Position numbers and translations under genes: made by a program. From Alphaproteobacteria bacterium (GTDB lineage Bacteria > Pseudomonadota > Alphaproteobacteria > CAAHEQ01 > UBA3637): DNA of 27,876 bases. Shown piece by piece: positions 424-15,825 of the stretch (positions within the stretch are counted from its first letter, which is position 1; every line of letters begins with the position of its first letter). The stretch is taken from assembly GCA_017513365.1 (NCBI GenBank), contig JAFXFY010000141.1, positions 1 to 27,876 on the forward strand, written 5' to 3'. Under the pieces are notes generated by a model, which had not been told where the DNA came from, made no database searches, and saw nothing but the letters and a program-made list of their open reading frames with translations.

Positions 424-1608
424 ATGCAATTAAAATTTGAAACTGGCCGTTCTATGGTTGAAATCATTGGTGTTTTAGCGGTTGCTGGCGTATTAAGCAT
501 TGGTGGTATTATGGGGTATTCCTATGGTATGAATAAATATCATGCCAATGAAGCCATTTATGATGTAAATATGCGTATGATTGATGTGGCCACTCATGTG
601 ATGCGAGGTGTACAAATTGACCAATTAGATTCGTCTTGGGGCGAGGCAAAAAGTGGATATGATATTGAATTATTCCACGATTCCGATTCCGAACCATCTA
701 TTATTGTTAAACAAGTACCGACAGGTGTTTGTAAAGAAATTTTAAAGTCTACACCGGATATACAAGATATTTTTGTTGGTTCCGAAAATGCAGACGGAAT
801 GGATGGCAGTTGGTATTTAGGCGACAATGAACACATTTGTGATGGCTCAGATAAAGATATGTTATTTGCTTTATCTCCGGAAATTTTAGCCGGATTTAAT
901 CCGGACGATGAAGCGTATGTTGAACCCGAAGGAACGGCAACAATACCTCCTCAATTAGAATGCTATTCTAATGCCGATTGCCGACCGGATAAACCGATTT
1001 GTGATAATGGTACGTGTGTAGAATGTACCAAAGACAGTCATTGTCCCAGTGACGAACCAAATTGTAATCCAAATACTAAATTGTGTACGGCTTGTTATGG
1101 TGAACCCAATGGGGCTCCTTGTGTGTTAGCCGGCAAAGATTACGAAGGTATGTGTTATGGAGATTCAAATTATGCATGTCTTAATTGGTGTGGTGAAACA
1201 CCATTGGTTGGCAGTTGTTCGTATATGAACAATTACTGTAAAAATCAAGGCGGTCGAGCCACAATTTATCAGTTAATGTTGATTTCGGATAATCCGCTCT
1301 ATTGTCAAACGCAAAAAGCGGCTGGGAATGAAGTTGTAGCTAAGTATGGTAGTAGTGTCGTATATACCTATACTGGAAAATGTCCGGATACCGAACGATA
1401 TAAAGGATTATGGAGTAAATTGAGAAATGGGTGTCCAGATAGAACCGGGAGATATATCAGTAATGTTGACAGGGTTGAAGTCAATAGAAGTGGATCATTA
1501 ACGGGATCTGAATGCGGTTCTGGAAACTGGTGGAGTTCTGGCGCTTGTTATGATGATGTTCAAGCCATCATTGATGCCTATGATGCAGCGAATCCAATAA
1601 CGGAGTAA
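424..1608 (+). CDS. Type IV prepilin-like protein with Cys-rich C-terminal repeats (putative minor pilin/adhesin)
   Basis: SD AAGGAG. N-terminus ETG|RSMVEIIGVLAVAGVLSIGG is a class III signal-like segment with E5 and a hydrophobic helix. Tandem C-x4-DC-x4-P-x-C repeats (ECYSNADCRPDKPIC; ECTKDSHCPSDEPNC). Confidence 0.8.
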   Translation: MQLKFETGRSMVEIIGVLAVAGVLSIGGIMGYSYGMNKYHANEAIYDVNMRMIDVATHVMRGVQIDQLDSSWGEAKSGYDIELFHDSDSEPSIIVKQVPTGVCKEILKSTPDIQDIFVGSENADGMDGSWYLGDNEHICDGSDKDMLFALSPEILAGFNPDDEAYVEPEGTATIPPQLECYSNADCRPDKPICDNGTCVECTKDSHCPSDEPNCNPNTKLCTACYGEPNGAPCVLAGKDYEGMCYGDSNYACLNWCGETPLVGSCSYMNNYCKNQGGRATIYQLMLISDNPLYCQTQKAAGNEVVAKYGSSVVYTYTGKCPDTERYKGLWSKLRNGCPDRTGRYISNVDRVEVNRSGSLTGSECGSGNWWSSGACYDDVQAIIDAYDAANPITE

Positions 1609-5126: not shown

Positions 5127-5345
5127 TACTTTTTGAAAGTGGCAATGGTGCCATTTTCTGGGCGTCGAAACCCATTTAAAAAGCAGTCGTGTGCACACGA
5201 CTTAAAACAAAAAGCGCTGACTGAAGTCCTGCGGATAACGCATATGAAGGGGCGGATGTCGGTGAATAAGACCTCGGTGTCAAATAAGCCGAGCCATCTG
5301 CTTTTTATGGTTTTCGAACATCCGCCCACCAATGTGGGTTTTTTT
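5127..5345 (+). promoter_or_regulatory. Candidate structured 5' leader / attenuator upstream of the short pilin gene
   Basis: Hairpins at 5136-5157 and 5185-5202 (perfect 18-bp palindrome); helix 5250-5259/5318-5327; terminator CCCAC-caat-GTGGG-T7 at 5325-5345 overlapping that helix. Confidence 0.55.
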
Positions 5346-5381
5346 AATATGTTATAACAAATAAAGAAAGGATGTTTAAAC

Positions 5382-5780
5382 ATGAAAAAATTAGAATCTG
5401 GTCGTTCAATGGTTGAAATGTTGGGTGTATTGGCTATTATTGGCGTACTCTCCATCGGTGGTATCGCTGGGTACTCTATGGCCATGAACCGTTATCGTGC
5501 CAACGAAGTATTGAATGCCGCTCAAATGTTGTCTGTTGTAGCTCAATCTTCAGTGAATAAAACTGGTGATATGACTGAAACTTTGGAAAGCTTAGGTATT
5601 ACTGGTGCTGATGACAATACGATTCATAATTGTACATTGAGTGCCGATTATGGTTCTCCGGCAGTTGAAGTTACAGGTGACAATTGTGATTTAACAACAA
5701 TTGCCAATATCACAGGTAAAACGCATACGACACATATCATTAATGCGAATGGTCAATTAGGTGATCCCGCTGCAAACTAA
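5382..5780 (+). CDS. Short type IV prepilin-like protein (major-pilin-sized)
   Basis: MKKLESG|RSMVEMLGVLAIIGVLSIGGIAGY; 132 aa with a C-terminal Cys pair; SD AAGGA. Confidence 0.85.
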   Translation: MKKLESGRSMVEMLGVLAIIGVLSIGGIAGYSMAMNRYRANEVLNAAQMLSVVAQSSVNKTGDMTETLESLGITGADDNTIHNCTLSADYGSPAVEVTGDNCDLTTIANITGKTHTTHIINANGQLGDPAAN

Positions 5781-13529: not shown

Positions 13530-14480
13530 CTAATTGCCACGACAAACGGCAATATACGCATGATGATTATGTCTTCTTGTTTTTGCTTCTTTAGACAAAC
13601 CACTGGTAATATCGACCATATATGCCGTTGTGCTGTTGACTTGTGTTGCTGTCCAAACGCCTCTTGGATTAGACGCATTAATAAAACCTTTATTTTTTAA
13701 TTCATTCATCAAGTTTGAGGGACCATTTGCGGTTGAATCCCATAGTTCATCTGTTGTTGGTAATCTTTTGCCTAACAGACCGCAAATTTTGTTTGCTTGA
13801 TACCAATTGGGAGTATGTTGCATATTAAACATCCATGCCCAAATAGAACACCACTCTTCCCCATCAATTTCGGCACATTTACGAATACCATACTTTAAAC
13901 ACTCCTCTTTGTTACTTTCTGAACTATATAAGCACGATGTTTCAAAATCACATTCTGTATCACCACATGTTTCAGGTATTCCATAATAAAAAGTCATATC
14001 ATTATCATCATTACATGCCGTGCTATCTCCAACAGCGACAGAATTAATGCTGATTTGGGTAATAGATGTATCCGCCCCTTCTATAATCATTTCGCATACA
14101 TACTTAGGTACACCTAACAGGCTCATGTCTACAGCATCATGTCCGGCAACATATCCGTAATCTCCCCATTCATACCCAACCGTGGAATGGGTTCCCCATT
14201 GGTCTAAATTTAACTCTTGTCCGTTTTCTTTTTGTGTAAGTAAATCAATACTGCGCAAATTGATGTCATTTATGGTGGTATTCGCTCGGTATTTATCCAT
14301 GCCGTAGGAATATCCGGCAATTCCACCGATACTTAACACACCGATAATAGCGAGTGTTCCCAGCATTTCAACCATAGAACGACCGGATTCAGACATTCTG
14401 CTGTCATTCTTGTGCGTAGCGTTAGCGAAGACACGAGAATCCAGTATATTGATTTCTTCTTGTTTAATATTCATAGCCAT
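13530..14480 (-). CDS. Type IV prepilin-like protein with C-terminal C-type-lectin-like (Lcl/DUF1566-type) domain
   Basis: SESG|RSMVEMLGTLAIIGVLSIGG after a long leader; C-terminal NWYQANKICGLLGKRLPTTDEL ... VWTAT ... AYMV ... YIAVC. Confidence 0.8.
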   Translation of the reverse strand: MAMNIKQEEINILDSRVFANATHKNDSRMSESGRSMVEMLGTLAIIGVLSIGGIAGYSYGMDKYRANTTINDINLRSIDLLTQKENGQELNLDQWGTHSTVGYEWGDYGYVAGHDAVDMSLLGVPKYVCEMIIEGADTSITQISINSVAVGDSTACNDDNDMTFYYGIPETCGDTECDFETSCLYSSESNKEECLKYGIRKCAEIDGEEWCSIWAWMFNMQHTPNWYQANKICGLLGKRLPTTDELWDSTANGPSNLMNELKNKGFINASNPRGVWTATQVNSTTAYMVDITSGLSKEAKTRRHNHHAYIAVCRGN

Positions 14481-14700
14481 ATGCTTCCCTTCCTTTGTTA
14501 TTAATAACTAAAACGAAAACCACGCTTTTATAAAAAGTGTGGCTGGAAGTTGAAGACTATTGAAGAGAATAGTGTGGCATATTCGGCATTTCTGCCTATT
14601 TTGCCGCCCTCCAGCCAACGCTGGAAAGCGTATATTTTTCGTCCGCTATCGGACGCTCTTCAAAGAGGTCTTCATACCTCAGGGCAGAATAACTGCCCTG
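14481..14700 (-). promoter_or_regulatory. Candidate structured 5' leader / attenuator
   Basis: Hairpins at 14680-14700, 14665-14680, 14640-14655 and 14610-14625; alternative helix 14610-14617/14540-14547; terminator 14520-14542 with U-tract 14510-14519. Confidence 0.6.
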
Positions 14701-14705
14701 CATAT

Positions 14706-14734
14706 AACATATCAAATATTACACTGTAATGCAA
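14706..14734 (-). promoter_or_regulatory. sigma70-type promoter with a dyad in the spacer
   Basis: Minus strand TTGCAT-17-TATGTT; ATTACA-c-TGTAAT palindrome at 14718-14730. Confidence 0.6.
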
Positions 14735-14778
14735 TACTTTTGTGATGCAAAAAAATGATGTTATTTATAAAAAAAGTT

Positions 14779-15825
14779 CTAAGCTCGTTCAATCAAGCAC
14801 GCATCGCCGTATGAAAAGAATCTGTAATTATGTTGTATGGCATAGGCATAGGCCGTTTTCATCGCTTCAATACCGGCAAAGGCACAGACCAACATAAATA
14901 ACGTAGAACCGGATAAATGAAAATTGGTGAACATGACATCAATAAATTTAAACCGGTATCCTGGGGTAATAAAAATAGAAGTTTCACCCGCAAACGGATG
15001 TAAAATACCCTTTTCATCAGCAGCCGATTCCAATAATCTGAGGGATGTCGTGCCAACGGATATAATACGACGCCCTTCACGTTTTGCCTGATTTAAACGC
15101 TCAGCCACATCTGGGGTGATAACCCCAAATTCAGCGTGCATTTTATGGTCATCCGTATCATCCACTTTAACGGGTAAAAAAGTACCACCGCCAACGTGCA
15201 GAGTAATAAATTCTCTGGAAACACCCTTTTTATCCAATCTGTCAAATAACTGTGGTGTAAAATGCAATCCGGCTGTCGGAGCCGCTACAGCCCCCTCATG
15301 GCACGCATAAATGGTTTGATAGTCGGCCTTGTCCGATTCTTTTCCGCCACGTAAGCGTTTAATATAAGGGGGCAAAGGCATTGTCCCGACTTCATGTAAA
15401 GCCGTCATTAAATCAGCCCCACTTTTGTTAAAATGCAATACCACTGGTCCTGTATCCATTTTGTGCATAACGGTGGCATTAAAATCATCGGCCAAAAAAG
15501 TAATGATATCACCTTGTTTGAGGCGACGCGAATTTTTAATCAGTGTTTCCCAATCGGATAAGTTTAATTGTTTAAACAGCGTGATTTCAATGTTGGCTTC
15601 GCCTCGTTTGCCGTATAATCTGGCAGGAATGACTTTGGTATCATTAAAAACCAACACATCTGTCGGGCGTAAGATTTTATCCAAATCGGCAACGGTTAAA
15701 TCCGTTAAAGTCGGTTGATTATCGCATACCCGAATATGTAATAATTTAGACGAATCTCTGGGATTTGCCGGCGCATTTGCAATATGACTTTCGGGTAAAT
15801 CAAATGTAAAAATATCTGTTTTCAT
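14779..15825 (-). CDS. queA: S-adenosylmethionine:tRNA ribosyltransferase-isomerase
   Basis: VFNDTKVIPARL, MPLPPYIKR, YQTIYA, AVAAPTAGLHFT, VGTTSLR, TNFHL, YRFFSYGDA. Confidence 0.97.
   Translation of the reverse strand: MKTDIFTFDLPESHIANAPANPRDSSKLLHIRVCDNQPTLTDLTVADLDKILRPTDVLVFNDTKVIPARLYGKRGEANIEITLFKQLNLSDWETLIKNSRRLKQGDIITFLADDFNATVMHKMDTGPVVLHFNKSGADLMTALHEVGTMPLPPYIKRLRGGKESDKADYQTIYACHEGAVAAPTAGLHFTPQLFDRLDKKGVSREFITLHVGGGTFLPVKVDDTDDHKMHAEFGVITPDVAERLNQAKREGRRIISVGTTSLRLLESAADEKGILHPFAGETSIFITPGYRFKFIDVMFTNFHLSGSTLFMLVCAFAGIEAMKTAYAYAIQHNYRFFSYGDACLIERA

Follow-up and report, generated by a model that had tools for sequence, protein, structure and literature searches.

A conserved two-state RNA leader, probably a transcription attenuator, before pilin and other surface-protein genes of uncultured gut Alphaproteobacteria

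The leader of a pilin-like gene in an uncultured alphaproteobacterium is, we think it likely, a cis-acting bistable transcription-attenuation element and one member of a large multicopy family in gut and rumen Alphaproteobacteria. Comparison of 99 copies shows, at the level of sequence, that two mutually exclusive folds are conserved, one of which would leave an intrinsic terminator free to form while the other would take away its base. The effector that tips the balance is most likely a small molecule or second messenger, the identity of which is unknown. There being no transcript, 3'-end or binding data, transcription and termination are inferred here, as are the direction of the switch and the very existence of a ligand.

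The window, by which we mean the whole 27,876-nt stretch of DNA that was analysed, comes from a 1.27-Mb assembly of 252 contigs and 39% G+C. On its minus strand, from 14734 down to 14481, a promoter, a structured leader of ~190 nt, an intrinsic terminator and a Shine-Dalgarno sequence are laid out in that order before the ATG of the pilin gene. The promoter (14734-14706) consists of a -35 element TTGCAT (14734-14729), a 17-nt spacer and an extended -10 element TGaTATGTT (14714-14706), in which a TG at 14714-13 precedes TATGTT (14711-14706), and we infer a transcription start near 14699 without transcript data to support it. A simple consensus promoter scan did not list this promoter because its -35 element is weak; the TTGCAT-17-TATGTT arrangement, which an earlier first-pass annotation made from the letters alone had put forward, is present where it was placed, and its TTG (26-31 of 32) and TGnTA (28-32 of 32) are conserved in register in 32 paralogous copies. 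The Shine-Dalgarno sequence (GGAAGGGAAG, 14493-84) is followed by an ATG at 14480 that opens a prepilin-like reading frame of 316 amino acids (14480-13530, minus strand; G/RSMVEML). Pfam returns no family for this 316-aa protein; we take the gene to encode a putative type IVb-like pilin, and proteins behind other copies of the leader match the type IVb pilin families Bundlin and PilS_N. Upstream of the leader-pilin unit lie queA, an AmiA-like amidase gene and lepA.

Dinucleotide shuffles of the 223-nt leader fold at -52.7 +/- 4.8 kcal/mol, against -90 kcal/mol for the leader itself (z = -7.7). Read 5' to 3' on the minus strand, it begins with the hairpin P0 (AGGGCAG-UUAUU-CUGCCCU, 14699-14681), in which all five modelled pairs show compensatory changes among the 99 copies, and continues with the hairpin a:a' (14680-14665), formed by GAGG (14680-77) and CCUC (14668-65), for which compensatory variants are found at all four pairs (AAGG:CCUU, GGAA:UUCC, GGAAG:CUUCC and UGGG:CCCA). 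Strand b (14674-14668) sits inside the a:a' loop, strand c (UUGAAGAG, 14663-14656) follows it, and hairpin d (CGUCCG-AUAG-CGGACG, 14655-14640; 97% of cells paired, compensatory changes at 5/5 pairs) leads into an A-rich linker. The next element, hairpin e (14628-14607), is the putative anti-antiterminator, CUUUCCAGC-guug-GCUGGAGGG, with 94.9% of cells paired and four of its eight pairs compensatory; its arms are A (CUUUCCAGC, 14628-20) and B (GGCUGGAGGG, 14616-07). Hairpin f (14605-14576), common to both folds, is capped at its tip by GAAA and has an internal loop, AAAAUA / GAAUAU, that is conserved; each of its six outer pairs is supported by compensatory change. Downstream of it, the hairpin g:g' (14573-14556; ACUAU at 14573-69 with AUAGU at 14560-56) encloses strand c' (14567-14560) and belongs to only one of the folds; strand b' (GUCUUCA, 14557-14551) and segment C (ACUUCCAGCCA, 14550-14540) follow. 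The leader ends in a terminator (14542-14510) made of a stem-loop (14542-14520; compensatory changes at 8/8 pairs over the 99 copies) and the U-tract UUUUCGUUUU (14519-10), which lies about 30 nt from the ATG. A G+C-containing stem-loop with an immediate U-tract satisfies the definition of an intrinsic terminator; the evidence is computational, and termination itself is inferred.

We propose that the nascent RNA, starting at about 14699, would take one of two folds. In the OFF fold, the pairing A:B (hairpin e), together with the long-range helices b:b' and c:c', would close a four-way junction and leave segment C free, such that the terminator (14542-14520) and its U-tract could form and the pilin gene would remain untranscribed. 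In the ON fold, B together with bases of the hairpin loop would pair with C (14617-14608 with 14549-14540, 10 bp including one G-U) to form an antiterminator that serves as the P1 helix of a three-way junction with hairpin f and g:g', and b' and c' would be unpaired. This helix overlaps the terminator stem by 3 nt, so that the three basal terminator pairs would be removed and RNA polymerase would read into the gene. Read-through is predicted to require an effector that stabilises the junction or traps it during transcription. The hairpin, its alternative pairing, and the terminator with its U-tract are all found at the positions that the first-pass annotation had given them. Its proposal of terminator, antiterminator and anti-antiterminator logic now has comparative support from 99 copies, beyond the geometry of a single one, and the covariation analysis of homologous leaders that it had called for yields a conserved structure with covariation among A, B and C. 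Its geometry was right and its extent too small, as the switch also includes two long-range helices, an inferred H-type pseudoknot and an ON fold built on a three-way junction.

The comparative evidence rests on an alignment (A3) of the 99 copies to R1, a covariance model built from the 32 copies of the window's own genome, in which six helices of the OFF fold were tested (P0, b:b', d, e, outer f and the terminator). Across these six, 95.6% of cells are paired, compared with 77.4% in shuffled controls and 37-50% when partners are slid, and compensatory changes occur at 34 of 39 pairs; for b:b' alone, 99.4% of cells are paired and six of seven pairs are compensatory. The c:c' helix aligns badly by column and was examined instead by mix-and-match duplex energies, in which cognate strands average -7.3 kcal/mol and non-cognate strands -0.6 kcal/mol. 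The corresponding values for b:b' are -7.7 and -1.8 kcal/mol, A:B and B:C also form better duplexes with cognate than with non-cognate strands, and none of 2000 permutations was as good as the true assignment for any of these helices. Segment B covaries over the 99 copies both with A, its hairpin partner, and with C, which abuts the terminator. In the B:C helix, 99.9% of cells are paired and four of eight pairs show compensatory changes. Covariation is strong at three positions (GC/AU/GU 41/35/14, CG/UA/UG 62/19/10 and UA/CG/AU 70/18/3) and is seen at columns 189:311, 190:310 and 191:309; the cognate partner ranks first or second among the 99. The helix persists in lineages where two hairpins have taken the place of hairpin e, and likewise in two other families, with UUCC/GGAA changed to UCCC/GGGA. 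These figures carry several caveats: the alignment was fitted to the OFF structure, which inflates the percentage paired; all of the sequences are paralogues or relatives, and the shuffle controls consequently overstate significance; and the expression platform is identical in kind in all 99 copies, which were found with a model that includes it. The usual hallmark of a riboswitch, one aptamer joined to varied platforms, is therefore seen only in the distant sRNA-Xcc1 loci described below.

Less variable elements were assessed from individual changes. The g:g' hairpin is nearly invariant, with joint changes in one copy (L104, ACUGG:UCAGU) and in the two other families (GCCGU:ACGGU). We infer from pseudoknot geometry that g:g' cannot coexist with the full c:c' helix, because c' is enclosed without a linker, and we therefore treat the two as alternatives; an outer g:g' pair at columns 273:296 was rejected, because it is with b that column 296 covaries. 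From their topology and loop lengths, we infer that a:a' and b:b' together make an H-type pseudoknot. A distal GAGG:CUUC pairing suggested by RNAalifold was likewise rejected, since the local CCUC compensates in at least 7 variants while CUUC is invariant and is mispaired (A-C) against a-strand variants in three copies. A complementarity of 5-7 bp between the loops of P0 (UGAU) and of the terminator (AUCA) is seen in roughly 40% of copies (A3 columns 16-34 and 317-348; for example L039, L047, L106, L074 and L099). The two motifs co-occur strongly (38/2/1/58, Fisher 8e-24), and independent compensations such as AAGGAGC:GCUCCUU are found. A kissing interaction of this kind would likely tie the 5' end to the expression platform, with an unclear effect on termination; the complementarity is absent from the window copy.

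Calculated energies place termination as the default. A:B and B:C are equally strong in the window copy (-19.1 kcal/mol for either helix), and the terminator hairpin, worth -6.9 kcal/mol when complete, falls to 0.0 once its three basal pairs are lost to B:C. When the choice is made, with the terminator's 3' arm not yet transcribed, even the best structure that enforces B:C is 6.8 kcal/mol less stable than the OFF fold, and the A:B state wins in 82% of the 99 copies by a median of 7.5 kcal/mol. The greater stability of the OFF fold implies that an effector is needed to favour the junction, making the leader an ON switch, with the caveat that nearest-neighbour energies omit the pseudoknot and tertiary contacts.

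The leader is highly repeated. BLAST and iterated nhmmer searches found 32 full copies in the window's own genome, plus a few fragments, and all 32 terminate 5-25 nt ahead of the start of a reading frame. R1 matches 34 places in this genome; of 24 genomes sampled from the same family, 22 contain matches, between 1 and 46 apiece; outside the family, weaker matches occur in two of 16 other families of the class. Scanning named assemblies for the pattern places the leader in uncultured Alphaproteobacteria represented by metagenome-assembled genomes (MAGs) from rumen and from rabbit and human gut. A sister group, subfamily 2, has eight copies in the window's own genome with the same architecture as the main subfamily and a P1 helix of GGGCGGAUGU:ACAUCCGCCC. 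One of these is a second, divergent leader in the window (5127-5351, plus strand; R1 48.7 bits, E 3.5e-12), which precedes a short pilin gene (5382-5780, plus strand). What the first-pass annotation took for a tRNA-like cloverleaf ending in ACCA, at 5250-5331, is really the three-way junction of this leader. The other seven copies, on contigs C212, C78, C157, C82, C229, C67 and C27, precede genes for pilins, Cys-rich secreted proteins and lipoproteins.

Several further observations concern the distribution of the leaders. The third pilin-like gene of the window (424-1608, plus strand) has no upstream leader of either subfamily by R1 or nhmmer, and thus not every pilin paralogue is under leader control. 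Many copies lie 100-900 nt from contig ends (C67, C45, C1, C208, C47, C48, C195, C105 and others); the repeated leader and the conserved N-terminal coding region of the pilins probably break the assembly, and copy number is therefore perhaps undercounted. In a lineage of rabbit-gut MAGs (L055, L076, L098, L111, L127, L083 and L095), two hairpins, UUUCCCUUAU..AUAAGGGAAA and GGUCG-AAC-GACC, replace hairpin e, with A sequestered by a new partner and B:C fully retained; the ORF finder often gives no convincing gene immediately downstream of these copies. Tandem leaders ~120 nt apart occur in two relatives (G004, contig C22, 1588-1791 and 1914-2127; G005, contig C43, 4371-4573 and 4695-4908), and could represent a tandem switch or enclose a very small gene.

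The genes behind the leaders encode mostly surface and secreted proteins. Downstream of the 32 copies in the window's own genome, ~20 reading frames are pilin-like and ~7 encode small Cys-rich proteins with Sec signals. A crude N-terminal classification of 51 downstream proteins from many genomes sorted them into 16 that are pilin-like, 27 with signal-peptide-like N-termini (five with a lipobox-like cysteine) and eight others, which include glycosyltransferases and one HTH protein. Pfam matches on downstream proteins comprise OMP_b-brl (7), Opacity (7), Bundlin (5) and PilS_N (4), as well as LRR_5 and several glycosyltransferase families, and the Bundlin and PilS_N matches indicate that the pilins are of the type IVb kind. 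In these uncultured gut bacteria the leader probably turns pili and other surface proteins on and off in response to an unknown signal.

No Rfam family reaches its threshold with the leader, and the closest one resembles it only below threshold. Searched with Rfam, the entire window yields nothing at gathering score, and relaxing the cut-off to E<=10 for 14300-14950 gives only a chance snoRNA match, in keeping with the earlier remark that the upstream part matched no recognised riboswitch class. The family sRNA-Xcc1 (RF02221) does not match the window copy at E<=10, scores 30.2-38.6 bits against five of 20 paralogues, and gives 12 matches in the window's own genome, the best at 40.6 bits (29-40.6 bits over the paralogues), the gathering threshold of 53 bits being met nowhere in that genome. 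Subfamily 2 is nearer to RF02221 than the main subfamily is, its leader in the window matching at 38.2 bits over 5250-5335. In the cmscan alignments of the paralogues, the RF02221 consensus coincides with the ON junction, and the three-way junction that characterises the family is therefore present: its P1 corresponds to B:C, hairpin f to its hairpin 2, the internal loop of which is AAUA/GAAUA, and g:g' to its hairpin 3, and its 3' tail runs into a terminator.

RF02221 exceeds its threshold in 24 of 151 sampled Pseudomonadota genomes, with 1-6 matches per genome, and we inspected eight of these true loci (L180-L187), all in other Pseudomonadota. All eight have an upstream hairpin of the form GRGG-loop-CCYC; a regular expression located it in five, 77-107 nt upstream, and visual inspection in the remaining three. 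Its loop is complementary to J3/1 and the segment that follows the hairpin to the loop of hairpin 3, and in the five loci for which it could be computed, the c duplex is stronger with cognate than with non-cognate strands (-12.8 vs -7.5 kcal/mol). At some loci a terminator-like hairpin further downstream overlaps the 3' strand of P1; at one, a Shine-Dalgarno-sequestering arrangement takes its place. As the invading module and the downstream hairpins are shared with the true loci, we take the whole switch logic to be common to both. The R1 model of the full leader finds no match at E<=1 in the eight loci, so the kinship is distant and rests on the RF02221 alignments and the architecture. The two groups differ in their conserved P1 sequence (GGAAG/CUUCC), in that an A-rich linker comes after hairpin d in the alphaproteobacterial leader where the true loci have a U-run, and in number and setting, with about 40 chromosomal copies before surface-protein genes in one and 1-6 matches per genome in the other. 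Two of the eight true loci precede Bro-N/antirepressor genes and six precede unknown genes. sRNA-Xcc1 was described from Xanthomonas integron cassettes, is annotated also in Xylella, APSE phages and others, and has been reported upstream of symE and of an ORF6N gene; no integron, phage or mobile-element context is seen at the window leader, the neighbours of which are queA, the amidase gene and lepA and the target of which is the pilin. We conclude from these sequence comparisons that the leader appears to form a distant and divergent branch within a superfamily that is represented in Rfam by no more than its 87-nt core, sRNA-Xcc1. They further suggest that sRNA-Xcc1, which the literature calls a trans-acting sRNA under HrpG/HrpX control, may be the 3' core of a longer cis-acting switch rather than, or besides, a trans-acting sRNA. 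As far as we found, a cis-switch reading is absent from the literature: searches on RF32, CAG-239, pilins and RNA motifs gave no description of the leader, and the main text of a human-microbiome catalogue of structured RNAs, its supplements lying outside our scope, does not mention pilins or Proteobacteria.

A covarying, conserved, structured domain in a 5' leader and mutually exclusive terminator and antiterminator helices, with B:C overlapping the base of the terminator, are both expected of a riboswitch and both found, the second computationally only. A point against our reading is that the surface-protein gene set does not suggest a metabolite. The same regulon, in which more than 40 surface-protein operons share the leader, would suit a dedicated regulator, and a protein or trans-acting RNA could set the attenuator as in PyrR-, ANTAR- or LicT-type antitermination by binding conserved bases of the junction or internal loop (AAAAUA/GAAUAU, CACUAU, GGAAGG); purine-rich single strands that are conserved could be protein sites. 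We regard this as unlikely but not negligible: no candidate regulator gene adjoins the leaders, the spread of junction relatives over very different bacteria and mobile elements favours a universal effector over a lineage-specific protein, and the complexity of the fold and its invariant unpaired bases are typical of ligand pockets. Those unpaired positions, many of which neither helix set needs, also weigh against a ligand-free switch governed by polymerase speed or pausing, NTP, temperature or Mg2+, comparable to pH- and pause-dependent leaders. The equal energies of A:B and B:C, and a folding order (a:a', e and g:g' first) from which we infer that the outcome is sensitive to timing, would suit such a switch, but the OFF fold as a whole is favoured by about 7 kcal/mol, and we give the idea little credence. 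The known c-di-GMP classes, GEMM-I and c-di-GMP-II, come to mind because pilin and adhesin genes are typical c-di-GMP targets and the window's own genome keeps two GGDEF genes and one EAL gene, alongside a RelA/SpoT gene. Their architecture is different, however, no GGDEF hit accompanies the 4-5 leaders of one relative (G012, 97% complete), and membership in RF01051 or RF01786 is excluded by the lack of any Rfam hit to them in the window at gathering score or, at E<=10, in 14300-14950, leaving these classes practically no standing. Nearly all of 40 relatives have GGDEF genes, and two genomes without leaders have five each, a distribution that neither supports nor excludes c-di-GMP itself as the effector.

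The terminated ~190-nt leader might also be the product in its own right, a trans-acting sRNA, with read-through into the pilin gene incidental or governed elsewhere. In Rfam, the nearest family is classed as an sRNA gene, and the literature has treated it as trans-acting; the leader has its own promoter and terminator, and kissing between the P0 and terminator loops, where it occurs, would give a compact, stable RNA. Yet the gap between terminator and reading frame is only about 20-30 nt in every copy and holds just a Shine-Dalgarno sequence, which leaves no room for a separate promoter, and the gene must therefore be read through from the leader. Covariation among A, B and C and the overlap of C with the terminator base would have no purpose in a free sRNA, and b, c, b' and c' vary among copies yet stay internally matched, as expected for folding in cis; we accordingly grant this explanation very little credence. 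Leader-peptide attenuation through a 9-codon uORF encoding MKTSLKSVR, which the first-pass annotation had noted, can for practical purposes be set aside. The uORF is present in the window copy as described, but its ATG is kept in only two of 32 copies, other copies have in-frame stops, it has no Shine-Dalgarno sequence, and it lies inside covarying helices. A cis-acting attenuator whose junction responds to a small molecule or second messenger remains the reading that we prefer.

A wider interpretation, which we offer only tentatively, is that the leader and the sRNA-Xcc1 RNAs together form a new, widespread riboswitch class that gates about 40 surface operons. If this were true, the three-way junction would bind a second messenger or a small molecule derived from the host or gut, and in gut Alphaproteobacteria with tiny genomes one sensor would directly gate most pilins, outer-membrane proteins and secreted proteins as an RNA-based master switch of the cell surface. 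Provided that the switch works as we infer, a single RNA element would control much of the surface and secreted repertoire of a widespread, uncultured group of gut and rumen bacteria, including type IVb-like pilins, outer-membrane barrels, lipoproteins and Cys-rich lectin-like proteins, and sRNA-Xcc1, known only as an sRNA, would be recast as the ON-state core of a cis-acting bistable leader. With 30-46 copies per ~1.2-Mb genome, few riboswitch classes would rival it in number. Identification of the effector would show what these hosts sense in the gut, and would also add to the orphan riboswitches or attenuators a class whose genetic read-out is clear.

Among characterised systems, close parallels in logic are transcriptional ON riboswitches in which the closing helix of a junction aptamer competes with a terminator, for example the adenine/ydhL-type purine riboswitches, in which the P1 helix of a three-way junction likewise shares bases with the 5' arm of a terminator, a stabilised junction blocks termination, and bases of the junction and internal loops are conserved while helices covary. 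Unlike these riboswitches, the leader has no known ligand and no sequence or Rfam similarity to them, and its regulon consists of surface proteins rather than a metabolic pathway. The leader also carries a large 5' invading domain (A, b and c) that would actively unfold the junction through three helices, a kind of strand exchange that those riboswitches do not use. PyrR-controlled pyr leaders and trp-type attenuators, with their 1:2, 2:3 and 3:4 pairings, offer a second parallel. The leader has no conserved leader peptide, and no PyrR-type binding loop was identified in it; like them, it appears to pass through three successive exclusive pairings (A:B, B:C and C with the terminator), to which it adds long-range helices and a pseudoknot without counterpart in those systems.
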